Source: a virus. Taken from it: a DNA stretch of 64,000 bases. The position numbers and the translations under genes were made by a program. This document shows, in pieces, positions 1 through 30,742 of this stretch. Position 1 is the first letter of the stretch; every line of letters begins with the position of its first letter. The stretch is from positions 64,001-128,000 of IMG/VR virus record IMGVR_UViG_3300032308_002246. One strand, 5' to 3'. A model generated the notes under the pieces. The model searched no databases. It was not told where the DNA came from and saw only the letters and a program-made list of their open reading frames with translations.

Positions 1-2254
1 ATAAGTCAGCGGAAATTACTTCCTCATCATCTGTCCATCTCAATAAATTTTCTTGAGCTGAATCCATCAACATTTCGGTGGTTGCTTCATCCAATCCAAG
101 GAACTTTGCTCTTTTTTCTGGCGTCATTTTTTTTAGAGCGTTGTAAGTTCTTGAGTTTTTGCTAAATTTTAAATACGACTCCCAGGTCTGCGATACACCG
201 TCCCTGTTCATCCAGCCATCAAAGAAATTTTGGGTATAAAGTGCTCCGGCTAAATCCGTAAAATTTATCTTCCCATTTGATAAACCGGTTATTCGTTGCG
301 CTGTTTCAAACGCCCCATCAAGCGAGAGTGGTTGCATTTCATCCAGAAAGCTAATCGCTTGGTTCTTGCGTCTGGCTATTCCACGTCTTCCAAGTTCTTC
401 GGCAAAACCAATCAGTTCATCATCTGAAAGCTTTGACAAAACAGCCAGTCTGCTTGTAATTTTTACATTATCTCTAGAGTCAATATTTTTAACGAACTCA
501 GAGTTTTCAATTGGGAGATTTAGGTCTGTTTCTTGACTCAATCTTTCTTGCGTCTTATCTAGAGCCAATTCCGGGTTTGATGCAATTACTTCTGAACGGG
601 CTCTTCTGAGCGCCTCCTTGTGGTCAACTAACGCCGTATCTAGTGCGTCAGCAATTTCCGCAAATCTAAGCATTGCTACTGATGAATCTTCGTTCGCTGC
701 AAGATTTGGCAAATATGTTTCGTATGCTTCGTTGAAAGTAGGCATACCTCCACGCATGAACATTGACATTGCAAATGCATTAAATACTGAGCCAAGTAGG
801 GATTTGTCTAACTGCGTTCCTGCTTGTTCGTCTGAAAGTTCTCTTGTTTTTTCTGCAAAACCAACAAGACTTCGGAACATTTGATGTCTTGTTAAATCGG
901 TTAATCTTCCTTCTTCGTCTTTTTCACCAAACACTCTGTAAGAAGGAAAATCGTATTCTATTGTTGCATCTTGCATTGACTCGACTATTGCTTTGGCGCC
1001 AAAAGAAGCAAGAGAATCGCCGGATTTCAAAAAATCAACCATCTGTGTTGCGTAGTCAAAACCTATGTTGCTTGGAACATTGTGATTTCCATAATTTGGA
1101 TACAGCCCAGTAAGTGCTGACATCCTTGCGTTTAGTCCATCTTCTATTGATATAGAAGCTATTTTCTGATACTCATTTAGAGCCGCATCAAAATCAATTT
1201 CTTCTAAATCAGATGACCTGAGCTTTTGTAGAAATAGTGATGAAAGTTGTTCAAATTCAGTGTCCCACCATTCTGTGGCTAATTTTGCGGTTTCTTCATC
1301 AAAAAGTTGCCTTGCAAGCCCCTCTCGTCCAATGATTGTTTTGAGTTTTGCAAAATTGGCTTCGTCTACTTCTGCTTTTGTTTTTTCAATATATCTTTCG
1401 TAGAAACCAGACCCTTCTGCGTCTGGTCCGAATATTACTTCTAGTATTTTTTTTCTTAATTCTGAATCTTCTGGGAGGTCAATCTCTCTTGGGACTTCGC
1501 TCATGTAGGAGCCGTATTTTCTTTCACCTACTGACTTGTGTTTCAAAGAAACTGCACCTATAGGGCCACTTGGTTTTTCTTCAGTCGCTTTCGGTGCTGG
1601 GCGAAGCCTATTTGACTCTTTTGGAGCTCTTGGTCTTTCTGTGGCCGATGCTTTGGGTCTTGGGGTTTTATCAATGCTTACTTCTGGCAGTGGCGGGGTT
1701 ATTCTTGGCTGTGGTTTAACAACATCCTGAAGGTTGGTAGTTGCTGCATCGGTAGTAGCTTCAATCTGATTGCCCCCTGGGGTAGGGTCTGGAATTCCGC
1801 GGCCAAAATTTACTTCAGCTACACCCTCAAGAACCAACTTGTCTTTATCTGCGTCGACAGCCGTATTCGGGTCCATATTTCTTGGAGCAACACCAATTGG
1901 CTGACCAACATTTGGTCCAAGGGCTTTTTCTTCTAGTTCTTTTTTGTTGATTACACGTCTTACTCTCTGAGCAAAATCTCTGTCTTGGTTTCTTCTACCA
2001 AGAGGGCTCGCCCCAGTGACTCTTCTATAGTCAGACTCGTTGGTGCATGGCATCCACAGGTATCCGCCAGTGGTTGAGTTGTACTGTCTGACCCCAATGC
2101 ATCCAAGCTGTCTTGCCCTTTGCCTAGCTGATTCTTTATCTGTAAATGAGTCAATAGAGCCTGGTCTTATTGCTCTTGAGCCAAAGCTAAGAGACTTTTC
2201 TTGGTTCCCATTTTCTATTGGGCAACAGTCGCCCTGCTCAAAATCGTTGGTCAT
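1..2254 (-). CDS. Large head-associated protein, partial (>=751 aa, runs off the left edge; missing from the ORF track)
   Basis: Hand translation from ATG at 2254 (GAGGG upstream) gives MTNDFEQGDCCPIENGNQEKS...; the frame is open where checked and in frame at position 2. Contains LGCIGVRQYNSTTGGYLWMPC, KALG...DADKDKLVLEG...DPTPG and GPIGAV motifs shared with neighbouring ORFs. Confidence 0.85.
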   Translation of the reverse strand, partial: MTNDFEQGDCCPIENGNQEKSLSFGSRAIRPGSIDSFTDKESARQRARQLGCIGVRQYNSTTGGYLWMPCTNESDYRRVTGASPLGRRNQDRDFAQRVRRVINKKELEEKALGPNVGQPIGVAPRNMDPNTAVDADKDKLVLEGVAEVNFGRGIPDPTPGGNQIEATTDAATTNLQDVVKPQPRITPPLPEVSIDKTPRPKASATERPRAPKESNRLRPAPKATEEKPSGPIGAVSLKHKSVGERKYGSYMSEVPREIDLPEDSELRKKILEVIFGPDAEGSGFYERYIEKTKAEVDEANFAKLKTIIGREGLARQLFDEETAKLATEWWDTEFEQLSSLFLQKLRSSDLEEIDFDAALNEYQKIASISIEDGLNARMSALTGLYPNYGNHNVPSNIGFDYATQMVDFLKSGDSLASFGAKAIVESMQDATIEYDFPSYRVFGEKDEEGRLTDLTRHQMFRSLVGFAEKTRELSDEQAGTQLDKSLLGSVFNAFAMSMFMRGGMPTFNEAYETYLPNLAANEDSSVAMLRFAEIADALDTALVDHKEALRRARSEVIASNPELALDKTQERLSQETDLNLPIENSEFVKNIDSRDNVKITSRLAVLSKLSDDELIGFAEELGRRGIARRKNQAISFLDEMQPLSLDGAFETAQRITGLSNGKINFTDLAGALYTQNFFDGWMNRDGVSQTWESYLKFSKNSRTYNALKKMTPEKRAKFLGLDEATTEMLMDSAQENLLRWTDDEEVISADL

Positions 2255-2319
2255 TTTCCCTCATGGTCTCACTAATGTGGAGCGCGTTTATCGTACCAAC
2301 AAATATAGCCGACTATTTC

Positions 2320-3153
2320 CTATTCAGGCATAAGCCCCTTATGGGATTTGATTTTTCTGGTTGACGGAACCCTGTGCTCGGTGTCAATTAATTTTGACAA
2401 AATCGGTGCAGAAACAATCCCACCGCCGTCAAGCGAAGATATTCCAACCGGGCCGCGCTCGTTGAGTTTTTCCCAGTTCGCACCACGGACTTTTCTTTTT
2501 GCTTTCCGTGGCGAGCCATTGTCTATTGATTCAAGACGTTCAACTATCTTTGATTTGACCAAGATGATTGGTTGATGAGACTTTGTTGAATTTTTTCTAG
2601 CCCTAGCCGCAGCTTCTGTATTTCTGACAAACTGTTGACCAGAAGCGCTACCTTTTCTTTTCTTATTGTTCGTAGCTCTTTTTTGTCCCGGGGTAAGTTT
2701 TGCCCAAGCTTTTGCTGGCAGGTATCTTCTTGTTCCACCGGTTCTTATTGCTGGTTTCCCGTCAGATGTAGTCCATTTTTCTTTAGTCCATTTAGAAAGA
2801 GACCTTTGTTTTTTGTTTTTGCCGCCTTTATAACCGCCACCTCGTTTTTTGTACTCTTGAGCTACAAGTTGGGCTTTTCTGGCAGACCACTGACCAGGTT
2901 TCCCACCTCTTGAGCCGGCCATGATGCGATTCTTTATTTCTTCTCTTAATCCAGGCTTTGTATAGTTTGAAGATTTTTCCTCTAACTCTGATTTCTTCAA
3001 AAATGATTCATTCTCTGCTTCGTTGCTCAGCCTTTGGAGTGTCTGCATATCGGCGCACGGCATCCATTCGCCTTTTTCATTTTTGTGCGCTCCACGGCAC
3101 CCCATGTATCTAGCAATCTTTAAAACTTGTTTTTTTCTGTCGTCGTCGTTCAT
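2320..3153 (-). CDS. Basic head-associated protein with a DUF5872-like region
   Basis: YTKPGLREEIKNRIMAGSRGGKPGQWSARKAQL and SLSKWTKEKWTT resemble DUF5872 phage proteins; N-terminal MGCRGAHKNEKGEWMPC motif. Confidence 0.7.
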   Translation of the reverse strand: MNDDDRKKQVLKIARYMGCRGAHKNEKGEWMPCADMQTLQRLSNEAENESFLKKSELEEKSSNYTKPGLREEIKNRIMAGSRGGKPGQWSARKAQLVAQEYKKRGGGYKGGKNKKQRSLSKWTKEKWTTSDGKPAIRTGGTRRYLPAKAWAKLTPGQKRATNNKKRKGSASGQQFVRNTEAAARARKNSTKSHQPIILVKSKIVERLESIDNGSPRKAKRKVRGANWEKLNERGPVGISSLDGGGIVSAPILSKLIDTEHRVPSTRKIKSHKGLMPE

Positions 3154-3572
3154 GTTGGAATCTCCGCATCTCCGTCCCAGTATGAAAAAGACTGAAGTAC
3201 AGACCTGTCGTCTCCCATGCCGTAGTCTTTTGAAAACTGTAAAGCAGCTTTTTCTGGGGTAATTGACATTGCCCTATACATGTCTGCTTGTGAGATTTCT
3301 GTATCAAATTTTTCTTCAACATCTGCAAATTTGTTGTAAGCCTTGTCTCCATATGTATAAAGAGACCATTCTTTCTGAAGAGCCCATTTAAAATCTTTTC
3401 CAGCTTTTGAATGCATGTACGATAAAGGCGGAAATTTTGCAAGCTCCATCATTGCTACATAATCTTCTGCAATTTTTTCGACTGCGTTGTCGAGGATTGA
3501 AATCTCTTCTTTGGATAAAGATTTTTTATCTTTTACCGCTTTTTTGAAAAGCTCTTGGGTATCTGTTTCCAT
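3150..3572 (-). CDS. Hypothetical protein (140 aa)
   Basis: Co-oriented, with a 4-bp overlap into the next gene. Confidence 0.7.
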   Translation of the reverse strand: METDTQELFKKAVKDKKSLSKEEISILDNAVEKIAEDYVAMMELAKFPPLSYMHSKAGKDFKWALQKEWSLYTYGDKAYNKFADVEEKFDTEISQADMYRAMSITPEKAALQFSKDYGMGDDRSVLQSFSYWDGDAEIPT

Positions 3573-3587
3573 TATTTATGCCTATCG

Positions 3588-6500
3588 TTAATACGGTTTG
3601 TCTGTTGTTCCATCTTTTTTGGTTACTTCAATGGTGTTCAGCCACTCACGTGCATCGTCAAGAGATGTAGCTTCGTTGAGCAGGATTAGACCAGTTCTGT
3701 TCGTAACCATTATATGGTTCTCGTCATTGTATTTACCAGGCGGAATACGCAAATATTGTTTAACTGGGTCTAGGTTGTATACCGCCGAATTGCTACTCAA
3801 ATAGACATCTACGCCTAGAATTGGGGCAAAAAGAACCTCATCGTCAAGATGGCGAAGATACTGCTGGCCTCTGTAAAGGCGTTTTACCTGCTCGTCTTCA
3901 TCGGTTAAACCCATTGCGTATAGTGCATTTTTTGCAATTTCCAGCTGTACATACCATCCAAATATTTCATTTCTTGTTGCGGCAAACCAATCTGGCCCAC
4001 CAATCTCTCCATCAAGGTAACCAGTTCCGGAGAGGTTTCTAATCATGTAATCAGGAACTTCATATCCAAAGTCATTACCAGAAGGTCTATTTGAGGTCAG
4101 ACCTGCAAGAATTGATGCATAAAGAGACTCAACCGAACCCTGGTCGGACCAGTTTGCATCTTGCGGCATTGGAAGGGCATTGAGCGCTATTTCTCTCCAT
4201 GTATTGTCTATGTCCCTATCGGAGTATCTATCTGCGGTAAAAGCAGATTGTCCATCTCCACGGGTTATCTTTTTGTTAAAAAATGTAGTCAACTGTCTAA
4301 TTTGTGATGCCAGTATGCTCATCTCGGCGCGGCCAATTATTCTTCCAGTGCGTGGGACCAGAGCGAGTATTGCTGATTTTTCTTCGCTGTTTCCATAGTA
4401 ACCAGTTATAGGGGTTTTAGCGGCAGAGAAGTTATCTCCTTCGCCTCCAGCAGAGCCGCCTTCTCCAGAAGGGATGTATCTTTCCCTAAATATGTAGTCC
4501 AACACCATTTCTTTTTGGCTCTTGCCAGTTTTTGCTCTTGAGATTCCCCTAACTATAGGAATAAACATTGGCTGGTCATCATCGTCAAGCATTTTCAAAA
4601 GAGACTCAGCTTCTTCTGGAGAAACGACAACCGTAGGCTCGTTGTAGCCGTTCAAGCCATGTGCTGCGGTGTGCATGGCTTTCTTTTCGTCGCCAATGTT
4701 TTCAAGAGTTGCATAGTTGATACTTTGCTCACGAGACATTTGTACTGTGTTGAAGTAGTCTATTTTGCCATCTGACAAAATAGATGACTGATACTCTTCT
4801 CCTGGTTGCAAGACAAGTGGCTGTTGTTCAAATATGCCCAATGTTCTATTTTTTTCAAGTAGTCCAATAATTTCATCTGGCGTTCTGAGTATTAGGTTTC
4901 CATCTTCGTCTTTTAGAGGAGCCAGCAATGTTGGGTCAACTCCGCCAATAACCCTTGTTCCGTCTTCTTGGGCTTTGACTCTTGCTGCAGCCAATCTGTT
5001 TCTAATCTTTGCTGAATTTTGCATAGTCTCTTTGATGGACTCGGTTATTCTTGGGAAAATAGAAGGGAAAACCCTGTCTGCTATTTCCTCAAGTGATTCT
5101 GCTAATTGAGCATTAAGAACAAATTCTCTTCTCTGTCTTTGATTATTTTTTGGAGTTCTTCTCCAGTCGGACAAAGCTGAATCCCTTGAACTAACAGCGT
5201 CTGAATGTGCTCTCTTGAGTTCTTGCCACGCCTTGTACCAAGCATTGCCGTCATTTGATTCAAGTGCTTGGTTGACTGCCTCCATCACCTTTGCGGCATC
5301 TGTAACCGCATAGCTCCAGCCAACATCTTTGTCTTTTGCAATAAACAGTGGCTGGGATGGGGCTTTATCCCCTTCCATCCCTGAGACAAGAGAGCCAGAA
5401 CGGTAGTAGCTTCTTCTTGGGTTGAAGTACTGGTCTCCATCGGCATTTCTTACAGTGTCTGGTGTACCTGGTGTTCCATCGTCATTTGCTGGGATGTCAA
5501 CAATCACCAAACCTGGATATTCTTTTTTAACTCTGTCTGGCAAGCTTTCCCATATTGCGTCTCTTGCTTGCTTGTATGATGCAACGCTGTTTTCGTGTGT
5601 ACCCGGAGCCAGCGATACGAAGCGGTCTTGACCTCCAGGCCCACCAACATTTGATTTGATTTTTGGATAAGAAACAATCTCTGCACCGGTTTTGCCAGAC
5701 CTCTGCATTGGAGGATAAGGCTGCATAGGGGTGAACTCGGTATCTATCGATATTGGGAAGTCTGAATAATCTTCTCTATATTGACCAGAGATTGGGTCTC
5801 GCAATAGTCCGGTGTATTCCTCGATTACATATTTGGCATTTTCTGAAGCTTCTTGTGTTCCATGCTCTACAGCTGGAATTACAACATTCGTGGCTTCATC
5901 ATTGGTTGGCTCAACAACTGAATCAACATTGAGAGATTCTGGGGTGTCAATTTCTGTAGAAACAGGGTCAATGTCTGCAGGAATTGTTGCCTGTGGAGAA
6001 ACATCTTGAGTTGCTGGCTGGCTTGTGTCAACCGGCAAACTAGGTTGATTTGTTTTTCTTGGTCTCTTTGGCGCAACTGGTGCAGCTGGTTTTTGTCTAG
6101 GAGTTTTGGCTGTGTTCTTTGACAGTAGGCCGGCATCTTCCAGAATCCACTCTCTTAAACCAGGCTTGAGAGACGCCCAGTCTGACTTTTTGTTTTTTGG
6201 ATAAAGCGGTTCTGTTGAATCAAGGAAGTCGTCAATCACAACTATGTTGTGTGCTTGGTTTTTGATTATTGCAGCTTTTCTTGGCTGTGTTTTTGCCAAA
6301 TTTGACATCCACTGCTCAATTGACTCTTCTGTTAGGTCGTCAGATGGATTAAGACCAATTCTCTTTCTCCAACCGTTCTCAAGCCGTGTTCTAGCCTTCT
6401 TCATTGAGTCTTCTATTGAAGCTTGTTCAGTAGGTGTGTAGGCATCCCAGTCTTTTATTGTTTTTGCAACTCTTTGCGATGGAACTATGTTGCCGTACAT

Positions 6501-9978: not shown

Positions 9979-10573
9979 ATTCTTCTAATTCCCAGTTCTC
10001 GTCGTTTGCTACCCAGCTTGAAAAATCTTGCTCCATGGAGATGAACTGCTCAAGCACCTTGAATGCGTGGTCCCAGTCTTCGTTTGTTACAACAGGGGTG
10101 AATGGTTCGTCGTAAACCGTGCTGCTTCCTGAAGCAATTGCGGTTTTGCGACCAGCGCGAGATGTGATTTTTTTGATTCTGTCATCAAATTCTTGGTCGT
10201 TCCATATTGAGCCCTGAACAACGCCACGAATTTTTTTTCTGCAATTTTTCATTCCTGGATGGTGACATCCTTCATTTGGCCATAGGCCGGTAGTTTCGTG
10301 GTGGAGCCATGCACAAATATTATTCAGCGGATAAAGCTCTGGATGGTCAGCAAGAATTACACGGCATCTTCTAAAACCGCCTGGCTTCCTCATGATTGGG
10401 CGCCAATATCTTAAAAGTCTTTCAAGGTTGCCACGTCTAGGACCACGACCTTTTAACAGGTCGCCAGTGATTCTCTCTTGTGGTATTGCATCTGGTGGGA
10501 CAGCAAGCTTTTCAGATGTGTTACCAAGATTTTTTATGATAAGCCTGTCCGGTATGTAGTTGTTATCACTCAT
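9968..10573 (-). CDS. Head-associated hypothetical protein (Cys/His motif)
   Basis: LLRYW...GGFRRC...ICAWLHHETTGLWP, a motif type seen in actinophage head-region proteins; overlaps its neighbours. Confidence 0.7.
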   Translation of the reverse strand: MSDNNYIPDRLIIKNLGNTSEKLAVPPDAIPQERITGDLLKGRGPRRGNLERLLRYWRPIMRKPGGFRRCRVILADHPELYPLNNICAWLHHETTGLWPNEGCHHPGMKNCRKKIRGVVQGSIWNDQEFDDRIKKITSRAGRKTAIASGSSTVYDEPFTPVVTNEDWDHAFKVLEQFISMEQDFSSWVANDENWELEEFDA

Positions 10574-10991
10574 TGTCTTGACTCTCCAAATTCTTGATTT
10601 CTTCTAAAGCTTTATTTATTTTTTCAAGTGCAGAATCACCAAGCAAAAGCGATTCACCAACATTTATTTTTTTATCTTTAGCCTCAAAGTAGTCGTTCTT
10701 TTCTTTCATTAATCTGTTTGCTTCAATTGAGTTGATTATCTTTTTTGCTGTATCAGATGAATTTTTGTAAACCTCGCTACTTAAGAGATTTTTTATTCTC
10801 TCCCTTGTCGAGTCTGCCGGCTGCCAGTTGTTTGAAAATCTGTCAACAATTCCTATTTTTTCATCAAACTGCCCATGCTGGACCGAACCATCAAATCCAC
10901 TTTGCTCAATCAACTCCTTAATTGGAGTCTTTTTAATTCTGTCAAGCAATTCGACGAAGTCTTTGTCTGCATTTTTACCAGTGTCTTCCAT
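10566..10991 (-). CDS. Hypothetical protein (likely start MEDTGK at 10991)
   Basis: Part of track ORF 10566..11027; the ATG lies directly after the stop of the upstream gene. Confidence 0.6.
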   Translation of the reverse strand: MEDTGKNADKDFVELLDRIKKTPIKELIEQSGFDGSVQHGQFDEKIGIVDRFSNNWQPADSTRERIKNLLSSEVYKNSSDTAKKIINSIEANRLMKEKNDYFEAKDKKINVGESLLLGDSALEKINKALEEIKNLESQDNE

Positions 10992-10992
10992 G

Positions 10993-13900
10993 TTACATCC
11001 CTTCGCCGTTTCCGGTAGCCCATTCAATCATTCTTGAGTGAAGTCTATCAAGAAGGTCTTTCTCCTGTTCTGAGAACTGCGAAAGACCACCAGCATCCTC
11101 GAGCGTCTTTGCAACATGCAACTCTGCGTACCCTTCTGCGTTTGATGCAACATAGTTTTTTGCTGGCTTTGTGCCTGGATAGTATGCCGGCCCTGCATAA
11201 ATGGATATGTAAGGCAAAAGTGCAGAGATTGCACTAATTTCATCATCTGAAAAGTTTTTCCATCCATTGTTGTTTTGTTTATTCATCAGCTCGTTCACAT
11301 ACATCAACAATCTCTGATAAAGAGCATCATCATTTACTTTTTCAATTACGGACGCAACATATTTGGCTTTGTCAAACTTTCCATTTTGGTCAAACCAGCT
11401 GTTTTTTCCGTATACATTTCCTGCAAAATTCTGCATAAACTCGTCAACTGCATTTTTATTCCCGTTTAGGATATCAGTCAAGAGATAATGCATTCTGTCA
11501 AAAGCAAATGTTTGGTTGTTTAGCCACTTTAAAATTGGAACTAGGTTCTGCAGTTTGTTTTGGAATGCTTCCATCATCAGTTGTGCTTGGACAAGCTGAT
11601 TATCCATTATTTCTAAAGTTTCTTTCATTGACTGAAGCTTTTCAAGTGCATCGTCTTGACTTGGTGCCATTATCGAATTCAAAATTGAATTTATTACAGA
11701 TTCAAGACCTGCTCCAGAGTTCAGAGCCTCGTCAATGCCGCTTCTTATATCCAGCTCGCCAACACCAGACATTGATGAAGAAACGGTTTCCTCAAAGGCT
11801 TTTATACTTGCCGCAAGCTCGTTTCTTTGTTCAATCATTTGCGGGATGTCTTGCAACATTCTCTCGTGGGATATCTTTGACTGAATGGCGTCCATAACTT
11901 GTTCAACAACAAATTTTGTAGCGTACATATCTGCAATATCATTCACGAATGGTGAGCTCATCCCAGATTCAATCGCCGAAAGTTCAGCTACTGCAAGCCT
12001 AAATTCTCTTGCTGAATTGAGTCCATTTCCAGAGTTTTTGTTTGCCGCATTTGGAGAATTGCGCCAATCTCCAACACCATCAAGCAAATGTCCAAATTCA
12101 TGAACTCCAACCAAGAATGTAGAAACTTTCAACATTTCGTCAAAACCCTCAATTGCTTTGTTCGTTGCATTTGAGACTATTTGGTTTCTTAGTGCTGGTT
12201 TTTGTTTTGCAAGATTCATTGCTTCTTCGTAGTTATTTGCTATTTCTTGCGAAAGCTGAGATACGGCAGTTGTAATTGTCGTATCCATAATCCCACCGGA
12301 CGAAGCTCTCTTGTTGGTCGCCATTTCAAGCATTTCGTTTATTACGGCATCAACAACTCCGTTTGGAATTTCTTCAAGCTGTAATGAAATAGGTCCAATT
12401 CCAGGAACGAAGAATTCTGGATTCTTCCCCTGATTGTAAGGTATTGATGGGAGCGAAAGCTGTATTGACTTACTGGCTCGACGAAGCTTTGGGTTTATTG
12501 ATACGCCGACTTGGGTCATGTCGTCTAACCCAACTTGAGATACAAGAACACGACCCTCTAGGCCGGGCAGTGATGGATTCTGTCTAATACCCTGAGCCCC
12601 AAGGCCAGCCCTGTTTAGTGTGAACTCCATGAATGTTGGGAGTATTCCAGTTGTCCCTCCTGGAGCGTTTGCAGCTGGTTGGTCGGGCATGTTCAGTGAG
12701 TTAAAGTCCAAAAATACGTCTTTAAATGCTGCCGGATATTCAATTAGGTGATGCATCAATGCGTAGTATGCGCCAAGTTCAGCTGGAGATATAGGAGTGT
12801 CTGGTCCGGAGTATCTTCCGCCAAGAACCTCTTGCAGGGCACCCATTGACGAAAGCACAAAATAGGACGGGGAAACCTCAGTGTTTATCCCAGCATTATT
12901 CATCGTCTCAACAATTGTTTCAATATTTTGAATTGCGTGCCTAATTTTTTTAGGTTTTCCTGGGAAAAATGAATCGACTTTTGCTTCTATCTCATTAATT
13001 TTTTGCCTTAGACCGTTAATATCGTAGAGCCAATCGTTTTCGGTTGGTCTTGGAAGTGGATAGTTCTCAATTTTCCCAAGTGGCCCAGCTGCGTTTTCTC
13101 TCTCAGATGCAATTGTGGATATTGATTGAACAGCCGAGATTCTTTTTTCTGGTTTTTGTTTTTTTAACTTATTTCTTCTTGTGCGTCTATTTTCTATGTT
13201 TGGAGAAAATGAATCCCGCGCTGCTGTATTGGTAGCTGCACGTATTGCCCCAACTGGCGAGCTAGGTCGTTCGTGTATTGTTGCATCCTGAACGCTTCCG
13301 TCGTTATCGCCATCATATGCATTTGCTCTAAATGGCTCAATTCTTCTGCCACGTGATGAACCGATTGGACTTCCAAGTGCTTTTATAGATGACTTGCCTA
13401 CAAAACTTGATATTGATTTTGCTTTAACATTGTTATAGTTATGGAACTTGCTAGGTGCAAGAATCAGGGCCGTATTTCTGACATTTACATTAAGGTGCTT
13501 GAAGTCGTAGGCGTTACTATTCCCTGGGTTCATAAAAGCTTGCTGCACGCGTTCTTCTCCAAGAAAAAGACCCAGTATGTCAATTATTTCACTTTCTGTG
13601 TAATTGGAAAAGTTTGTATTTTCTGATGAATTTAGCCATCTCTTTATTTGTTGAACTCCGTCTCCAGAGAAAACAAAAGCTCCTAATTCGGCCATCGCTT
13701 CATTTGTGCTGCTCTGTCCATATGAGGTTCCAAGTATGTTGTTTATAAGCGCCCATAGTTCTGGTGATGCAACAGCATCTCTAGGTATGGCTCTAAAAGA
13801 CGGGTCTTGTTGTCCAAATGCATTAATAAAAGCTTCGTACCACCAATCAAAATCACCATTTATTCCACGAGCACCCAATGCATCTTTTACGCTATCAAGA

Positions 13901-16239
13901 ACATCCTGTATTGCTCTTTTTGTAAAGCCTTTATTTTTGGCCCATCTCTCGTAAGCTTCTCTTAGTTGCTCTGAATTTGTGTAGTTTTCCATGTACCACT
14001 GCATGATTGTCGAAGCTTTTTCTATATCGTCCCTAGCCGCTCCAACCCTTAGGTCAAGATTTCTTAATTGTGCAGCAAGAATGCTGTCTGGATTGTACGA
14101 TGCAAGTGTGCGGAAATTTAGTGGCTGTCCACTTGAGAGTATTTCCTGCCATTGTTCCTTATCTATCCCAGCTATTGTTCTTATTCTGTTGTAGTAATCA
14201 TTTATATGGTTGAGCTCATGGTCCATCAAGTCCTGTATGAACTGTGATGTTGTTTTTGGTTTGCCATTTACAAAAAAATGGTCTCCTACCGAATTCATAA
14301 AATCCCATAAATTCTCTTCTTTAAAGAGGTCTGGATTTAAAACAAAAACACCATAAGCAGGTGGGTTTAGTTCAGACATTATTGCGCGCAGTGCTTTTGG
14401 ACTTTTTGTTTTCAATCTTTCTAGCTCAGTGTCAATATCGGAGGCAGAAATACCTGGATTCATACGTGAAATATAGTTAATCAATTGAGCATCAAGTATT
14501 TCTGATTCTGCAGATGTCAGAGTTCTGTTCCCAACAATTGATGCTCCTCCGGATGATATTCCAAAAGAATCTGCAAAGTTGTCTGGGTCAATAGCATCTG
14601 GATTTCTAAAAGGGTTTTTTGTCCCAGGTATCATTGCGTACATTAGGGTATTTGGCTTGTACTGGTCATCAGGGTCCAAAATTCCCTCTTGGTTTTTAAA
14701 TTCTTCACTTGAGCCCCAGTACATCCTTAGAGGTATTACTGAAACATCCTCCATTTCTGCAGATGTATCTTGGATATGTATTGAATACGCATCAAGAATA
14801 TCCATTATTGATTCTTCTAGAAGTTTTAGCCTTCTGTCGCTTATTGGGGTTTCTAGTTGTCTTTCAAGTGCTCTTCTTCTTGCTTCTCTTACTGCAGATT
14901 CAGAAACTCCACGGTTCATTAATTGCGAAACTTCTTGGTCGTATCCAAGTAATGTAACTTCAATATTTGTTAAAGGCCTAAAGCCACCAGCTCCATCCGG
15001 AACCACCAGCTGTTGCAGTGTTCCACCAATCATCACCGGAGATGCTTGTTCAAAAAATGTAGTGTCCAGCCTTATGTCGGGTAGGCCTTTTGCCCGACGT
15101 CTTGAATTTATTCTTTCTTCAAGGTCGGAAAGAGCTCGACGCGCAGTTTCAAGAGACTTGTCAAGTCCGCTTCCAGGCATACTTTTTTGAGCAATTTTTA
15201 AATTAGATTTTGCTTTTTCGTATCTAGCTCTTTTGCGGGCTTGTCTTTCTTTTATGTTTGTGCGAGGTATCAACCTTGTAAGACTGCTTACAATTGGTGG
15301 AAACATCCTTCCAATTGCAGAAGACTCAGGCGCATCGGCTCCAGATGCGATAACCGAGCCGTCATCTGTAAATAGGCTTAATGTGTTCTTATCGTATCTA
15401 AGAGGCCTAATACTGCTTGGCATTGAATCAAAAACTGCTGACAATTTTCTAAACTTTGGAACTTCCGGAATTTTATCGTTGTTTAGTTTTGCAACAGCAG
15501 AGCCAACCGAGCCATCTGGTCCATCTGGTGAACCAGGTATATCGCAACCAATTCCAAAAATATTCGTAAATCTATTTGCCCCTGGATTTCCGGGGCCGCA
15601 TCTAAGTTTGTTCTTGCCGTCAAGATAAAGGCCTCTTGCGTTAGCCGCAAGGCCCAAAAGCGACTCGCTGAATTCTCTCAAGGAACGTCCGAGCAGTCCT
15701 TTTTCGGATTCGTTTTTTACCTTGCGCGGGTATTGCATTTTAAACTTGTCTGTTGGCAGTGGGAGATATTTGATTATGTCGTCTAGCTCTTCAAACCTCA
15801 TGTCGTCAATCGGAGTTCCACCTCCATAGTTGTGACACATTCTCATGGATAGACCAGGAGGCATGGCTGGAAGGTCGTCGCCAGGTTTCCATTGTTTGGC
15901 CCACTTAAAGAACTCTGACTCAGGATATGCAGGAACTTCTTTTTTGGGCTTTGATGCCTTAAAATTTATTTGCTTATCAGGTTGTCTCCACCAACTGTCA
16001 AGACTCTTGCCTCTGTATGCAATGATTGCATTTGTTGCCCACTCGGAGTTGTGCCCACCAAATTCTGTAATTGAAACAGATTTCAGTTGAATTTCGTCAG
16101 ATGCTTCAGCTTTCCTTAAATTTCCAGTAGTCGAGTTATAGACAAAACGCCCGCCACTAGGTGTTTGATACATGAATGAGTTGCCATTTTTTGCAACAAT
16201 TCTTGCATTTAGTGGAATGTTTTGGCTTTTGTCGCCCAT
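10993..16239 (-). CDS. Giant polyvalent-type protein (1748 aa) with two zincin metallopeptidase-like domains
   Basis: HELNH...NEAMAE and HEFGH...AEGYAE; also RCGPG..NRFTN..GC, DGDNDGSVQD..ERP and PxGx[IM] motifs. Confidence 0.8.
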   Translation of the reverse strand: MGDKSQNIPLNARIVAKNGNSFMYQTPSGGRFVYNSTTGNLRKAEASDEIQLKSVSITEFGGHNSEWATNAIIAYRGKSLDSWWRQPDKQINFKASKPKKEVPAYPESEFFKWAKQWKPGDDLPAMPPGLSMRMCHNYGGGTPIDDMRFEELDDIIKYLPLPTDKFKMQYPRKVKNESEKGLLGRSLREFSESLLGLAANARGLYLDGKNKLRCGPGNPGANRFTNIFGIGCDIPGSPDGPDGSVGSAVAKLNNDKIPEVPKFRKLSAVFDSMPSSIRPLRYDKNTLSLFTDDGSVIASGADAPESSAIGRMFPPIVSSLTRLIPRTNIKERQARKRARYEKAKSNLKIAQKSMPGSGLDKSLETARRALSDLEERINSRRRAKGLPDIRLDTTFFEQASPVMIGGTLQQLVVPDGAGGFRPLTNIEVTLLGYDQEVSQLMNRGVSESAVREARRRALERQLETPISDRRLKLLEESIMDILDAYSIHIQDTSAEMEDVSVIPLRMYWGSSEEFKNQEGILDPDDQYKPNTLMYAMIPGTKNPFRNPDAIDPDNFADSFGISSGGASIVGNRTLTSAESEILDAQLINYISRMNPGISASDIDTELERLKTKSPKALRAIMSELNPPAYGVFVLNPDLFKEENLWDFMNSVGDHFFVNGKPKTTSQFIQDLMDHELNHINDYYNRIRTIAGIDKEQWQEILSSGQPLNFRTLASYNPDSILAAQLRNLDLRVGAARDDIEKASTIMQWYMENYTNSEQLREAYERWAKNKGFTKRAIQDVLDSVKDALGARGINGDFDWWYEAFINAFGQQDPSFRAIPRDAVASPELWALINNILGTSYGQSSTNEAMAELGAFVFSGDGVQQIKRWLNSSENTNFSNYTESEIIDILGLFLGEERVQQAFMNPGNSNAYDFKHLNVNVRNTALILAPSKFHNYNNVKAKSISSFVGKSSIKALGSPIGSSRGRRIEPFRANAYDGDNDGSVQDATIHERPSSPVGAIRAATNTAARDSFSPNIENRRTRRNKLKKQKPEKRISAVQSISTIASERENAAGPLGKIENYPLPRPTENDWLYDINGLRQKINEIEAKVDSFFPGKPKKIRHAIQNIETIVETMNNAGINTEVSPSYFVLSSMGALQEVLGGRYSGPDTPISPAELGAYYALMHHLIEYPAAFKDVFLDFNSLNMPDQPAANAPGGTTGILPTFMEFTLNRAGLGAQGIRQNPSLPGLEGRVLVSQVGLDDMTQVGVSINPKLRRASKSIQLSLPSIPYNQGKNPEFFVPGIGPISLQLEEIPNGVVDAVINEMLEMATNKRASSGGIMDTTITTAVSQLSQEIANNYEEAMNLAKQKPALRNQIVSNATNKAIEGFDEMLKVSTFLVGVHEFGHLLDGVGDWRNSPNAANKNSGNGLNSAREFRLAVAELSAIESGMSSPFVNDIADMYATKFVVEQVMDAIQSKISHERMLQDIPQMIEQRNELAASIKAFEETVSSSMSGVGELDIRSGIDEALNSGAGLESVINSILNSIMAPSQDDALEKLQSMKETLEIMDNQLVQAQLMMEAFQNKLQNLVPILKWLNNQTFAFDRMHYLLTDILNGNKNAVDEFMQNFAGNVYGKNSWFDQNGKFDKAKYVASVIEKVNDDALYQRLLMYVNELMNKQNNNGWKNFSDDEISAISALLPYISIYAGPAYYPGTKPAKNYVASNAEGYAELHVAKTLEDAGGLSQFSEQEKDLLDRLHSRMIEWATGNGEGM

Positions 16240-16307
16240 GGTGGGTCTTTCTTTAATCTTTGTGATTGCGAGTTATTTGTATGTAAATTATAGACTTATT
16301 ATGATAA

Positions 16308-18866
16308 TTACTGCGAAGGAGACTCTTCGTAGCCGTCAATAATTGAACCAATTCTTGATGTAAGTTTTTCCCCTGTTGTCGACCAACTGTATGTCTTATT
16401 ATTTTTAAAATCTGTATATGTGTAACCAAATGGATTTGAGCGAATACTTGGGTCGTCAATGTTTTTGTCAACTTCAAGCGTTTTCATTACAAGGTCGTAT
16501 CCGGCGGCCCGTATTTTCTTCCTTGTTTTTTCTGAACTTTCGGCAATGTTTTCAGATAGTAGTCTGAGCATTTTTACAGCATTTTCTCTGTTTAGTGAGA
16601 TTCTGTTTGACAAGTAACCATTGTTTATCAACCCAAAATCATTTGCCATAAAAGCAAATCCAAACCAGTCTCGCATCTCTGTGTCAGTCATTGGGCCTTC
16701 TGGGACTCCGTCTGAGCCGTTACTCAAAACACCTGACCCAAGAAGCGAGTTGACCTTGTGAACTGGGTTTGAAAGAGACCCTTTTCCTCCGGAAATTTGC
16801 TCCCACAAAGGCACTCCTGTAGTTTCTGATAGATATCCAGGAAAATTGTTTTCCAATGTTTTGTTGGACATTGAACCAATCGGACCAGGCTCAATAAAAG
16901 GTGCAACGCCGGTTTTTGATTTTGAACCACTAAAGCTGACTTGTCTTTCCTCTAGAAGCTTGAAGAAGTTTTTTAAGTCTTCATAAGCAGGGAACGCTTG
17001 TGCATAGTCTGAATCCTTGCCCAATCTTTCAATCATTTGCTCAGCAACAGATTCTCTTTCGTCTTGCGAGATAGACCAAAGTAGCGGTGGATTTTGTCCT
17101 ATTTCAATTTTCCACCCATCAAGAGTTGATGTTATCTTTACACCGTTGTTTTTGCTGATTTTTTTGTTTGAACCGCTAAAGTAATTTTCAAAATTGTTAT
17201 AATTTATTAGTTCTTCATCTACGCCATTTATCCCCATGAAGTAGATGCCGGCTCTGCGCATATCAAAGGCCTTATATTGTTCTTTTGCTGGATTTTTGCT
17301 ATCGCCCTTTAAGACCAACATCATGTAGTCAGCCGGTGTTCTGCCCAATAGTCCATACCCAGTTTTTTCTAGCAGTTCATTTTTTTTGAAGTTTTCATCA
17401 AGATGATTTTCAATTAATGGCTGTATGTCATTAGCCATTAACCAAAAATCAAACCAGTCAACTGGCTCTCCGTCAGTAAAACTGCTAAATCCAAACACAT
17501 CGCCGTATTGATTGTTTTTCAAAGACTGTCCGTCAGCGTCTGCTCCCTTTGGGCTAGATGAAATCCAGGAATGAAGTGGGTTTGCCGAAATTGATGTTCC
17601 AAATTTTTTTCTTTGGTTCACAACTCCATTTGCAAGGTCGGTATTAAGAAGTTGGTTCAAAGATGAAATTTTGCCAACAGGACTATTTTGTTCTTGTATT
17701 TCGTACTTGAGTTGCTTTATGTTATTTACGTCTCCAGGGTTATCCCAGTAGTCATTGTGGTTAAACTTAATCCCACCATCCGCCAGTGATTGCTGCATAA
17801 GCAATAGGGATTCAAACTCTTTTTTCAGTCCTAGAATTTGGGCGGACCTCGTCATCTTCCATATTCTCGTGGGGTAGGCCAACCAAGGGTCTTGTCCAGC
17901 ATCCCAATTTATGTCTTCAATATACGTGGATGTTTCCACATCCCATCCAAGGGCAAGAGCATTTATTTTTATTGCCTCTGCGACATTTTTCAAAAACCTT
18001 CTATTTTTTTTGAGTCTTTTCAGCGGCTTTCCAGCGATATTGTATTTTTCTCCATAAGCACCACTGCCTCTATCGATTGGGAACATCCACCAGTCGTAGT
18101 GGTCGTTATGTATTTTGCTCCATTGAGAAGAATCTGCTAGCTGTCTGTGTTTGGCTAGTTCAAGGGCTTGGTGGGTTATTACAAACCTGTCACCACCGTA
18201 TGGGGTTGTGTTTATAAATCTTGCTCTTGGAATTGTGCTTTTAGGCAGTATCGAAGACGGTCTTTGGTAATTTGAAAGTATGTCTGACTGTGGTTCAAAG
18301 TCTTCCTGGCTATCCATGGTTTCGTAAAAGTTTGGGGGAGGAAACTCGTACGACTCTTCAAAGTTTGGGTCTAGACCAGCATCCTCAAGATATGCACGCC
18401 AGGCATCGTTGTAGTCAATCTCAAGTTCTTCTTCTTCAAAATCAGTCAAGTTATTTCCAACTTCAAGAGAACTCATATCGTCAAATTCAAAATCGTCAAA
18501 TAGTTCATCTTGCCCAAAAAGCGATGGTTGAGATTGGTCGTCTATATCAAACTCGGCATCAGCTACTGGTTCATCTTTTGAAACTGCACGGTTTACAAAA
18601 TCTCTAGCTTTTCTTCTTTTTGACCTATTGTTCTCCATCTGCCCGACTGGACCGCCTGGGGTTGGGTCAATCACTCCACGTCCACGATTTATGAACGGAA
18701 CACCCTCAAGAACATAGGGGTCGTTGTCTGCGTTTCGTGCAGTACTTGGGTCAAGATTTCTTCCAGCAGAACCTATGGGCATGCCAATAGCTTTAACGCC
18801 TAAGTTGGCATTAATTTTTCTATTTGCTCTGTTTCCAGATTCTCTGATTTCAGTTGGTTCGGCCAT
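16308..18866 (-). CDS. Putative virion-internal protein (852 aa) with an OGFr_N-like domain
   Basis: N-terminal KAIG...NADND..VLEG...DPTPG motif; acidic linker; HYDWWMFP...PTRIWKMTRSAQILG resembles OGFr_N; three PxGx[MI] motifs. Confidence 0.7.
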   Translation of the reverse strand: MAEPTEIRESGNRANRKINANLGVKAIGMPIGSAGRNLDPSTARNADNDPYVLEGVPFINRGRGVIDPTPGGPVGQMENNRSKRRKARDFVNRAVSKDEPVADAEFDIDDQSQPSLFGQDELFDDFEFDDMSSLEVGNNLTDFEEEELEIDYNDAWRAYLEDAGLDPNFEESYEFPPPNFYETMDSQEDFEPQSDILSNYQRPSSILPKSTIPRARFINTTPYGGDRFVITHQALELAKHRQLADSSQWSKIHNDHYDWWMFPIDRGSGAYGEKYNIAGKPLKRLKKNRRFLKNVAEAIKINALALGWDVETSTYIEDINWDAGQDPWLAYPTRIWKMTRSAQILGLKKEFESLLLMQQSLADGGIKFNHNDYWDNPGDVNNIKQLKYEIQEQNSPVGKISSLNQLLNTDLANGVVNQRKKFGTSISANPLHSWISSSPKGADADGQSLKNNQYGDVFGFSSFTDGEPVDWFDFWLMANDIQPLIENHLDENFKKNELLEKTGYGLLGRTPADYMMLVLKGDSKNPAKEQYKAFDMRRAGIYFMGINGVDEELINYNNFENYFSGSNKKISKNNGVKITSTLDGWKIEIGQNPPLLWSISQDERESVAEQMIERLGKDSDYAQAFPAYEDLKNFFKLLEERQVSFSGSKSKTGVAPFIEPGPIGSMSNKTLENNFPGYLSETTGVPLWEQISGGKGSLSNPVHKVNSLLGSGVLSNGSDGVPEGPMTDTEMRDWFGFAFMANDFGLINNGYLSNRISLNRENAVKMLRLLSENIAESSEKTRKKIRAAGYDLVMKTLEVDKNIDDPSIRSNPFGYTYTDFKNNKTYSWSTTGEKLTSRIGSIIDGYEESPSQ

Positions 18867-30710: not shown

Positions 30711-30742
30711 GTTTATATAAACTTAGTTGAATTTATATAAAC
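30711..30742. promoter_or_regulatory. Tandem AT-rich palindromes (GTTTATATAAAC and ATTTATATAAAC) upstream of the protease gene; candidate operator
   Basis: Perfect 12-bp palindrome at 30711-30722 and a near copy at 30731-30742, 20 bp apart. Confidence 0.45.

Follow-up and report, generated by a model that had tools for sequence, protein, structure and literature searches.

Four genes of the head module of this uncultured lake phage have one short peptide tag in common. They encode a 3190-aa polyprotein with an S78 prohead protease at its head, a 5345-aa protein and two further head-arm proteins of 852 and 1748 aa (Table 1). Compared at the sequence level, the tag has the consensus [G/S]-P-[V/I/L]-G-x-[M/I], followed by a small residue, and the seven strings listed for the 852-, 1748- and 5345-aa proteins are copies of it. 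Comparison between lineages indicates that the tag is a genuine phage-wide signal, which follows the phage and not the protein. This gene independence is what is new here, and literature searches found no description of the tag. We consider it probable that the tag is a cleavage site at which the head cargo proteins are cut into modules. The window analysed is a 64,000-nucleotide stretch of the phage genome. All seven strings named in the sequence-only reading translate as written from its minus strand at the coordinates given there, and the partial ORF at the left edge does carry GPIGAV, as claimed; this ORF is the N-terminus of the 5345-aa protein.

Table 1. Coordinates, within the 64,000-nucleotide window, of the tagged genes, tag copies and associated motifs.
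Feature	Position	Strand	Residue	Remarks
852-aa tagged head-arm protein gene	16308..18866	-		ORF
GPVGQM, 852-aa tag 1	18636..18653	-	Pro73	matrix 12.0 bits; shared ~50-aa box directly before
SPVGKI, 852-aa tag 2	17667..17684	-	Pro396	<8 bits; immediately past conserved all-helical domain
GPIGSM, 852-aa tag 3	16869..16886	-	Pro662	14.9 bits; within variable-length linker
Shared ~50-aa box, 852-aa protein	18651..18794	-	25-72	contains NADND..VLEG..INRGRGVIDPTPG
1748-aa tagged head-arm protein gene	10993..16239	-		ORF; tags give segments 1-307, 313-994, 1000-1052, 1058-1748
SAIGRM, 1748-aa tag	15304..15321	-	308	degenerate, Ala replaces Pro; <8 bits
SPVGAI, 1748-aa tag	13243..13260	-	Pro995	matrix 11.1 bits
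GPLGKI, 1748-aa tag	13069..13086	-	Pro1053	<8 bits
DGDNDG, 1748-aa protein	13297..13314	-	976-981	14 residues upstream of SPVGAI; DGDGDG at aligned place in G001
HELNH, first candidate zinc-peptidase motif, 1748-aa protein	14206..14220	-	674	
HEFGH, second candidate zinc-peptidase motif, 1748-aa protein	12088..12102	-	1380	
5345-aa tagged protein, N-terminal 751 residues	2..2254	-		gene continues past left window edge; 13 tags in all
GPIGAV, 5345-aa first tag	1550..1567	-	Pro231	matrix 17.5 bits
3190-aa polyprotein, S78 prohead protease at head	21085..30657	-		13 training tag copies

The check proposed in the sequence-only reading, a position-specific matrix scanned against shuffled controls, yielded matches far above background, nearly all of them in the three proteins it had named. 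A 12-column matrix was trained only on the 13 tag copies of the 3190-aa protease protein and run over the 200 ORFs of the whole 174-kb phage genome, with 300 shuffles per protein and a cut-off of ≥10 bits. It returned 19 non-training matches against 1.3 expected (largest shuffle 5), which fall in the 5345-aa (13), 852-aa (three) and 1748-aa (two) proteins and in all other proteins together (one). Two of these matches, PKGAD of the 852-aa and PDGSV of the 1748-aa protein, are unlikely to be tags. GPVGQM, GPIGSM, SPVGAI and GPIGAV are the only ones of the seven strings that pass the matrix; SPVGKI, SAIGRM and GPLGKI fail it at <8 bits and are counted as tags only because orthologues retain them, as S/G-P-[VIL]-G-x-[MI]. 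The regular expression [GS]P.G.[MIV], evaluated with 1000 shuffles, occurs three times in the 852-aa protein (0.08 expected), three times in the 1748-aa protein (0.16 expected), once in the other head-arm genes (0.38 expected) and twice in the remaining 39,500 residues (3.1 expected). Outside the four tagged proteins, the remaining 44,000 residues of the proteome contain no P.G.M, against 3.4 copies expected.

The individual sites are retained in orthologues, with some latitude in spelling. In the 852-aa protein, of which IEPGPIGSMSNK is a tag segment, tag 1 keeps PVG-x-[MVT] in orthologues of 79–94% identity, so that T or V is tolerated for Met; elsewhere it reads PTGSM (in a 37%-identical orthologue), PFGSM (P0034) or ASGEM (P0016). 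Tag 2 appears in orthologues as GP[VI]GK[IM] or as a relaxed SASGNI, which is tolerated even in close ones, and tag 3 as GP[VI]GSM or GAAGAM in close orthologues. In G001, a syntenic phage whose cargo proteins are 34–46% identical to those here, tag 2 is represented by VSGSM in the same linker, 12 alignment columns off, and tag 3 by a degenerate GPLGGS. All three sites of the 1748-aa protein are retained in orthologues of 69–98% identity. The SAIGRM site reads SPVGRM, SPVGEM, SPLGGM, SPIGMM or GPVGRM in relatives, with variable x positions and flanks, and its counterparts are VSGSM, 13 columns away, in G001 and VTGAM at residue 327 in P0031. SPVGAI is SPVGA[IM] or SPVGVM in 12 of 12 orthologues of that same identity range and a degenerate HIGAL in G001. 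GPLGKI is GP[LI]G[KR][IM] in all orthologues and aligns column for column with PTGSM of G001. For GPIGAV of the 5345-aa protein, the aligned place in G001 reads ATGAM.

The strongest argument for a common signal comes from its concerted respelling between lineages. G001 has tags in the same four orthologues and lacks them in the same three, mostly at aligned positions: 8/8, 10/11, 2/2 and 2/2 of its tags fall on tags here. In all four genes the spelling is shifted from P-[VI]-G-x-M to [PV]-[ST]-G-S-M. At the second tag position, 24 of the 32 sites here have V, I or L, and all 23 in G001 have S or T. The pattern [PVA][ST]GSM occurs 8, 2, 2 and 11 times in the four G001 orthologues, with ≤0.02 copies expected in each, and nowhere else in that phage (45 ORFs). 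At 34–41% protein identity, counterparts exist in G001 for five of the seven sites, where ~0.011 per 31-column window would arise by chance; of the six sites that the 852- and 1748-aa proteins contain, two are degenerate there. A third lineage, represented by the polyprotein P0190, spells the tag x-T-G-x-M (TG.M, 13 copies against 0.57 expected). The same spelling is found as VTGAM and STGGM in P0031, a likely orthologue of the 1748-aa protein that we presume to belong to the same lineage as P0190. At least 278 protease-headed polyproteins exist, and among the 120 listed the tags are lineage-specific, mostly with the core G-(x)-[M/L/F]-[A/S/R]-S. As more than 20 sites in four genes changed in concert, one common reader is needed. 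The matrix, the flanks and codons, G001, the third lineage and this concerted change together back the earlier proposal of a signal that separate genes have in common, as opposed to an internal repeat.

Selection acts on the peptide and not on the DNA, since synonymous codons vary at all positions of the 32 tag sites; the tag Ser codons of G001 are a mixture of AGY and TCN. No similarity was found between inter-tag modules or between tag flanks. An internal repeat born of duplication was rejected, as the copies have no common flanks and differ in their synonymous codons, and a DNA repeat or recombination joint was rejected on codon variation. A conserved ATG could also mark internal translation starts for separate modules, given that the last tag residue is Met, or else Ile, Val or Leu with near-start codons, and that the tag sits at module boundaries. 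However, a Shine-Dalgarno match of ≥4 nt precedes only 12% of tag Mets, compared with 17% of other internal Mets and 39% of real starts. Internal starts were rejected because the sequence upstream of tag Mets is no more Shine-Dalgarno-like than that of other internal Mets. Pro and Gly are moreover kept through varied synonymous codons, and Ser through both codon families, which speaks against starts and DNA-level joints alike; we regard either as scarcely credible.

By homology, the tags sit at joints between unrelated modules, in old positions. Homology segments end at tags. The pieces of the 5345-aa protein before its first and after its last tag match free-standing proteins in the phages G002-G004, and the segment ahead of GPIGAV matches free-standing proteins of 209–221 aa in three other phages. 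The 852-aa protein runs from the shared box through a tag, a helical domain (~205–395), a second tag, a DWFDFWLM module and a third tag to a DWFGFAFM module. Nearly all of its 394 representative-library matches are to residues ~205–395, and database domain matches stop at residues 378–404, just ahead of tag 2. The N-terminal ~240 residues of the 1748-aa protein are common to other giant proteins. Each chain holds several unrelated domains, as seen from Pfam for the 3190- and 5345-aa proteins and only from module-wise homology for the 852- and 1748-aa proteins, for which Pfam, PHROGs and PDB sequence searches gave no match. The Pfam modules are Peptidase_S78 (PF04586, residues 30–173), DUF6321 and sigma-70 region 4/HTH in the 3190-aa polyprotein, and DUF3721, HTH, Clp_N, NUDIX and Zeta-toxin in the 5345-aa protein.

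Placement of the tags in disordered linkers is weakly supported, because the AF2 model of the 852-aa protein is confident only at residues 222–369; residues 646–686, around tag 3, are modelled as coil with low confidence. A fold search with the helical domain returned generic helical matches only (best Z 7.9, 7.7 and 7.4, the last to Rv1873, 2jek), all below the level deemed meaningful for helical folds. An indel of ≥3 residues lies within 12 residues of 23 of the 32 tags, compared with a background of 43% (binomial p ~0.001), and flank conservation does not differ significantly between tags and random windows (Mann-Whitney p 0.35). The proximity of tags to indels and their position between modules, together with the degenerate copies, would also suit a passive linker with a structural role, such as a Pro-x-Gly turn with a hydrophobic cap, disseminated through gene fusion and lacking any dedicated reader. 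Such a linker would not change its spelling jointly at more than 20 sites across the four genes, nor does the absence of P.G.M from the rest of the proteome fit; we therefore consider it improbable.

The preferred reading is that the tag is cut. The giant proteins would be loaded into the prohead and then cleaved at the tags into separate modules, among them, from the 852-aa protein, the helical domain and both DWF modules and, from the 1748-aa protein, both HExxH modules. The cut would probably lie next to the Met, since a small residue comes after it. Cleavage is supported by the fusion of an S78 protease to the polyprotein and by the nature of the cargo, which includes Zeta-toxin, NUDIX and HTH domains. 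Candidate readers are the S78 head protease, the HExxH modules of the 1748-aa protein or a host protease. The S78 prohead protease is encoded in the same head module as the tags and fused to the N-terminus of a tag-bearing polyprotein; fused in this way to the most heavily tagged protein, it would be the most economical reader, and it takes up roughly half of the weight that we give to cleavage. In the cultured relative Streptomyces phage Gilgamesh, which has the portal-MuF fusion in common, the following 4624-aa gene has neither an S78 domain nor the tag.

The proposed processing has close parallels in known head proteases. In T4 (gp21) and the phiKZ-like phage SPN3US (gp245), a single short motif directs trans cleavage of many head proteins by the phage enzyme during head maturation (PMC10052503), and in SPN3US 14 cleavage sites have been mapped in nine substrates, with propeptides that hold multiple motifs (PMC10052503). 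The likeness lies in one short linear motif present in many separate head proteins, which is read in trans there and which we infer to be cleaved here. However, the T4 and phiKZ motifs (hydrophobic-x-Glu; Ala/Ser/Gly-x-Glu) have a Glu before the cut, whereas the 32 sites here have no conserved Glu; their conserved residues are Pro, Gly and Met. Further differences are that the protease here is a member of the HK97/S78 Pfam family and that the tag, with Met at its end, punctuates giant multi-module chains, whereas N-terminal propeptides are trimmed in T4 and SPN3US. The capsid protein here also has no tag.

A second parallel is provided by the polyvalent proteins of phages and conjugative elements, whose embedded peptidases were proposed to release modules (Iyer, Burroughs, Anand, de Souza and Aravind 2017; PMC5512222). 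Like these, the tagged proteins are giant chains of unrelated enzymatic or DNA-binding modules encoded beside virion genes and probably delivered with the DNA. Whereas the assemblin-like peptidases described there are only C-terminal, the peptidase here is N-terminal, and no inter-module tag was described there (PMC5512222), whereas here one tag spans four genes with a spelling set by lineage. In Staphylococcus phage 80alpha, the host protease Prp reads a shared F↓A motif of the capsid and scaffolding proteins (PMC5744158). Both systems place the same motif on non-homologous phage proteins, which one enzyme reads in trans in 80alpha. However, Prp is a host enzyme, and its motif is located at the N-terminus and mimics ribosomal protein L27, whereas the tag is internal, has up to 13 copies per chain and differs in its spelling.

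Should the tag prove to be a cutting site, the heads of this phage and of at least 278 relatives would take in giant proteins encoded by tens of kilobases, from which one short code would release dozens of enzymes and DNA-binding modules. Cleavage would extend the RNA-virus polyprotein strategy and T4-like trans-processing to HK97-type phages. The spelling of the tag would then serve as a rule for predicting mature products of uncultured phages from sequence alone.

The capsid protein and the S78 domain itself complicate the assignment of the reader. As in HK97-type phages, the protease family neighbours an HK97-fold capsid protein, whose N-terminal delta-like region is the expected S78 substrate. 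No tag is present in the capsid protein, where the best matrix score is 5.1 bits at a site not conserved as a tag, and this counts against the head protease as reader. In phi12, an example of HK97-type delta-domain removal, gp32 cleaves after K or R (PMC8569155). The predicted delta boundary (RRM-SVG here; AK↓SLG or AK↓TIG in relatives) differs from the P-x-G-x-M tag. The S78 domain is 81–88% identical between phages with differently spelt tags, and also in the tag-poor G002-G004, so a change in specificity would rest on a handful of residues. S78 sub-lineages below ~90% identity each have their own spelling and those at ≥93% have the spelling found here, a pattern that common ancestry explains equally well. 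A complex model of the S78 domain (1–190) with residues 640–690 of the 852-aa protein gave a score of 0.00 without controls, which counts neither way on binding.

These observations leave room for a tag that is read but uncut, namely a docking motif for the capsid-interior surface, the portal-MuF protein, a scaffold or a chaperone, which loads or arranges the giant proteins. Concerted respelling needs a common reader but not necessarily a protease, the expected head-protease substrate carries no tag, and the protease domain hardly differs between spellings. On the other hand, it would be an odd design for one chain to have 13 docking sites that coincide exactly with module joints. Relatives encode as free-standing genes the modules that are joined here, which agrees more with separation than with tethering, and a hydrophobic residue followed by small ones resembles a protease site. 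We thus regard docking as unlikely.

Cleavage by a protease other than S78 is an alternative to which we give a fairly low probability. The reader could be the packaged HExxH modules, perhaps acting post-ejection, or a host protease. The motifs HELNH and HEFGH are the sole HExxH in the entire head arm, and every orthologue, down to 34% identity, retains them. The first retains H-E-x-x-H in 12/12 close orthologues and in G001; the second retains its context, FL[VI]..HEFGH.LD, in all orthologues including the 34%-identical one of G001, and related motifs occur in G-like proteins of G002-G004. Zincin peptidases are the commonest polyvalent-protein domain and proposed module releasers (PMC5512222), and host Prp provides a precedent in cutting non-homologous 80alpha proteins at one shared motif (PMC5744158). 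The HExxH modules diverge far more than the S78 domain, which gives room for co-evolution with the spelling, and the untagged capsid protein would be accounted for. However, the modules have no Pfam match at E up to 5, and their Atlas matches (<0.9) are leads only. The AF2 model of residues 1058–1748 of the 1748-aa protein (mean pLDDT 50, poor around the motif) is too poor to judge a zincin fold. G002-G004 also have HExxH modules yet few tags, and a non-S78 reader leaves unexplained the fusion of S78 to the tag-richest protein, which is found across the 278 polyproteins.

A broader and more speculative view, to which we assign a low probability, treats the tag as a private, evolvable address-and-release code with its own spelling and reader in each lineage, and the whole as a programmable polyprotein delivery system. 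The reader would possibly be the HExxH modules packaged in the capsid, perhaps active only after ejection into the host, and modules could be swapped between genes or phages by keeping their joints in the local spelling. If true, this delivery system would be common to hundreds of uncultured actinobacterial phages.

The sequence-only reading also had the tag directly following a DxDxD tag in two cases, which applies in part. Tag 1 of the 852-aa protein abuts the shared box, the element called a DxDxD tag there. However, NADND lies 24 residues upstream of tag 1 and DGDNDG lies 14 residues upstream of SPVGAI, and the strings quoted, DPTPG and ERPS, are not themselves DxDxD. The box of the 852-aa protein is 72% identical to residues 529–575 of the 3190-aa polyprotein (28933–29073) and 53% identical to residues 92–161 of the 5345-aa protein (1772–1981). 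It is thus present in three of the four tagged proteins, always ahead of the first tag, and it may be the part that anchors or addresses the giant proteins to the capsid. The same three orthologues of G001 contain the box.

The tag, a short peptide of consensus [G/S]-P-[V/I/L]-G-x-[M/I], is carried by four head-module proteins of 3190 (the protease polyprotein), 5345, 852 and 1748 residues. All seven strings named in the sequence-only reading are present as written, with exact translations. That reading regarded PxGx[MIV] as a signal used across separate genes, a claim that would fall if matches to a matrix were no better than background. Such a matrix, covering four residues before Pro to seven after and trained only on the protease protein's 13 copies, was scanned across 200 ORFs from the entire genome; 300 residue shuffles of each protein served as control. 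Excluding the training protein, it returned 19 matches of ≥10 bits where 1.3 were expected and the largest shuffle gave 5. They are distributed over the 5345-aa (13), 852-aa (3) and 1748-aa (2) proteins, with a single match in all remaining proteins together. The expression [GS]P.G.[MIV] occurs three times each in the 852-aa and 1748-aa proteins (0.08 and 0.16 expected) and shows no excess outside them, while P.G.M is absent from all proteins but the four tagged ones (~44,000 residues; 3.4 expected). Since matrix and regular-expression counts both exceed the shuffles, the matches clearly stand far above background. Individually, four of the strings (GPVGQM, GPIGSM, SPVGAI and GPIGAV) pass the matrix; the other three, SPVGKI, SAIGRM and GPLGKI, lie below its threshold.

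Judging by their close orthologues, these three weaker sites are genuine tags. In the 1748-aa family, all three sites are kept in 12 orthologues of 69–98% identity. The SAIGRM site reads SPVGRM, SPVGEM, SPLGGM, SPIGMM or GPVGRM in relatives, with S/G-P-[VIL]-G-x-M constant in the orthologues and the x positions and post-Met residues variable. The other two sites are kept as SPVGA[IM] and GP[LI]G[KR][IM], with Met and Ile interchanging at the last tag position. The 852-aa family retains tags 1 and 3. At tag 2 most orthologues have GP[VI]GK[IM] and some have SASGNI, so this site is under looser constraint.

In the distant syntenic phage G001 (IMGVR_UViG_3300007722_000007), which has the same gene order and cargo orthologues of 34–46% identity, the tag is spelt [P/V]-[S/T]-G-S-M. 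The counts are eight in the protease polyprotein, two each in the 852-aa and 1748-aa orthologues and 11 in the 5437-aa orthologue (≤0.02 expected in every case); no other ORF of the 74-kb contig has it. The three head-arm orthologues that lack the tag are the same in both phages. Pairwise alignment places the G001 tags on ours in 8/8, 10/11, 2/2 and 2/2 cases, mostly with zero columns of offset and otherwise with 3–13 columns in gappy linkers. Five of the seven named sites have a G001 counterpart (chance ~0.011 per 31-column window); degenerate forms, GPLGGS and HIGAL, stand at the other two. V, I or L occupies the second tag position at 24/32 sites here, including all six in the 852-aa and 1748-aa proteins; in G001 it is S or T at 23/23 sites. 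A third spelling, x-T-G-x-M, is found 13 times in the related polyprotein P0190 (0.57 expected). P0031, which is related to the 1748-aa protein and whose contig has the same reported length as that of P0190, carries this spelling as VTGAM and STGGM. The analysis supplies proof that the tag is independent of its carrier gene and that its spelling changes genome-wide.

A P-S-G-P-M string also lies inside DUF6321 of the 3190-aa protein. The surrounding FFTN-PSGPM-KKP is unchanged in both relatives inspected, P0159 (our spelling) and P0190 (x-T-G-x-M); it therefore appears to be part of the folded domain, not a lineage-specific tag.

At our 32 sites, Pro is encoded by CCT, CCA or CCG, Gly by all four of its codons and Val plus Ile by five, and the Ser before Pro uses both TCN and AGY; in G001, AGY and TCN are freely mixed at both Ser positions. 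This variety of synonymous codons rules out a DNA-level feature. Duplication was likewise rejected, as the inter-tag modules share no similarity. The Shine-Dalgarno context of the tag Mets is no better than that of other internal Mets. Together, these results identify the peptide as the unit of selection. The earlier proposal of a system-wide code rather than an internal repeat is supported by the enrichment across genes, the respelling in G001 and the codon variation.

The window spans bases 64001–128000 of a virus contig that is 173,962 bp long and has direct terminal repeats. Two small or medium ORFs separate the 3190-aa and 852-aa genes, and the 5345-aa gene is followed by an HK97-fold capsid protein (PF05065). 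Searches of Pfam, PHROG and PDB sequences gave no match for the 852-aa and 1748-aa proteins. Directly downstream of the capsid gene, a 191-aa gene matches aspartyl/asparaginyl beta-hydroxylases (PF05118, E 4e-14; DNA stretch L032:1944-2519, minus strand, genome 47944-48519, left of the window), an unusual capsid-gene neighbour. The cultured Streptomyces phage Gilgamesh (MN234216.1) has the same portal-MuF fusion, followed immediately by a 4624-aa hypothetical gene (DNA stretch L035:479-14353) with no Pfam domain, S78 protease or repeated tag.

Head-module features in the window, and tag sites with their counterparts in phage G001
Feature	Window position	Strand	Remark
Portal-MuF fusion	30742-32985	minus	first gene of head module
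3190-aa polyprotein	21085-30657	minus	N-terminal S78 prohead protease, then DUF6321 and sigma-70 region 4/HTH domains
P-S-G-P-M, 3190-aa residues 242-246	29920-29934	minus	inside DUF6321
Box, protease polyprotein residues 529-575	28933-29073	minus	72% identity to 852-aa copy
852-aa protein	16308-18866	minus	tagged
Box, 852-aa residues 25-72	18651-18794	minus	reference copy
Helical domain, 852-aa residues ~205-395	17682-18254	minus	
Two C-terminal modules, 852-aa protein	16311-17678	minus	DWF[DG]F[WA][LF]M.ND in each
852-aa tag 1			G001 counterpart PTGSM
852-aa tag 2			G001 counterpart VSGSM
1748-aa protein	10993-16239	minus	tagged; then several ORFs of 140-1466 aa
HELNH, 1748-aa residue 674	14206-14220	minus	conserved motif
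HEFGH, 1748-aa residue 1380	12088-12102	minus	conserved motif
1748-aa site 308			G001 counterpart VSGSM
1748-aa site 1053			G001 counterpart PTGSM
5345-aa protein, first 751 residues	left end of window	minus	module's last gene in window; continues past left edge
Box, 5345-aa residues 92-161	1772-1981	minus	53% identity to 852-aa copy
5345-aa site 231			G001 counterpart ATGAM

In comparisons with related phages, homology segments respect the tag positions. In three other phages (G002–G004), free-standing proteins of 209–221 aa match the segment ahead of the first tag in the 5345-aa protein, and a free-standing 326–333-aa protein just upstream of their capsid gene matches the segment that follows its last tag. 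Similarity of the 852-aa protein to these phages stops at residue 394, two short of tag 2, and nearly all of its 394 representative-library matches are confined to residues ~205–395. In the G001 alignments, 23/32 tags lie ≤12 residues from an indel of ≥3 residues, against a background of 43% (p ~0.001). In a structure model of the 852-aa protein each of the three tags falls in coil, but only residues 222–369 are modelled with confidence, so this placement adds little.

The 'DxDxD tag', which the sequence-only reading had placed directly before two of the strings, is part of a ~50-aa box of the rough pattern K-A-x-G-x-P-I-G...R-N-[ML]-[ND]-P-x-T-A-R-N-A-D-N-D-x-[YF]-V-L-E-G...I-N-R-G-R-G-V-[IV]-D-P-T-P-G. 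Its short form, NADND..VLEG..INRGRGVIDPTPG, is common to three of the four tagged proteins (53–72% identity), and the box also occurs in their three G001 orthologues. It precedes the first tag in every case and abuts it only in the 852-aa family. In the 1748-aa protein, DGDNDG lies 14 residues upstream of SPVGAI. The adjacency is thus loosely right, but not direct. We infer that the box may be an anchoring or capsid-addressing element.

The tag is short, lies at module joints, combines a hydrophobic with a following small residue, occurs in four head genes and is respelt in concert. For these reasons we lean towards a putative cleavage site, at which one reader protease would cut the four head-gene products between modules. 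The head proteases of T4 and SPN3US process many head and ejection proteins in trans at one motif (PMC10052503), and release by embedded peptidases has been proposed for phage polyvalent proteins (PMC5512222).

One candidate reader is the S78 prohead protease, which is fused to the tag-richest protein in an arrangement that recurs in 278 polyproteins of 1754–5583 aa. However, the capsid protein lacks the tag. Its predicted delta-domain boundary, AK|SLG or AK|TIG in relatives, is RRM-SVG here, with Met at or beside the relatives' Lys position (L032:2550-3872, minus strand, genome 48550-49872, left of the window), and is closer to the K/R-type sites described in phi12, an HK97-like phage (PMC8569155), than to the tag. 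Moreover, the S78 domain is 81–88% identical across spellings, also in phages with few tags. It is highly conserved among the 278 polyproteins; those checked have 71–100% identity to ours. Spellings of the repeated tag differ by lineage among the 120 listed (P0180–P0298): P.G.M, A.G.M, PTASM, EAGMA, DTGRM, DSGAM, RGMAS, GMRS, GLAS, GFAS, GLSS, GFSS and R[LF]SSG, mostly with a common core G-(x)-[M/L/F]-[A/S/R]-S. Alternatively, the HExxH modules of the 1748-aa protein may be packaged zinc peptidases that read the tag. Both motifs persist in all orthologues, even at 34% identity, and the head arm has no other HExxH, although no family match was found for these modules and a zinc-peptidase fold was not confirmed. 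A host protease could be a third option, given that Prp of Staphylococcus acts on 80alpha proteins that lack homology to each other, cutting them at a motif they have in common (PMC5744158).

With its putative cleavage, the system resembles the known scheme of one motif, many head proteins and one protease, and it behaves like polyvalent cargo proteins. The tag has no Glu, which places it outside the motif classes of T4 and phiKZ. Unlike in described polyvalent proteins, the assemblin-like peptidase is N-terminal here and the tag is common to several genes. Our literature searches found no paper describing this tag; new here are its independence of the carrier gene and its genome-wide change of spelling.

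A widespread all-helical domain occupies residues ~205–395 of the 852-aa protein; within it, the stretch H-x-x-H-Y-D-W-W-x-F-P contains near-invariant residues. Matches to this domain include many free-standing proteins of 150–290 aa; it has no Pfam family, and the one structural similarity, to M. tuberculosis Rv1873 (2jek, Z 7.4), is weak. The distant orthologue of the 852-aa protein has further DWF-type modules besides the C-terminal pair found here (DWFDFAIM, DWFDYWLM and NFDFLIMLND).
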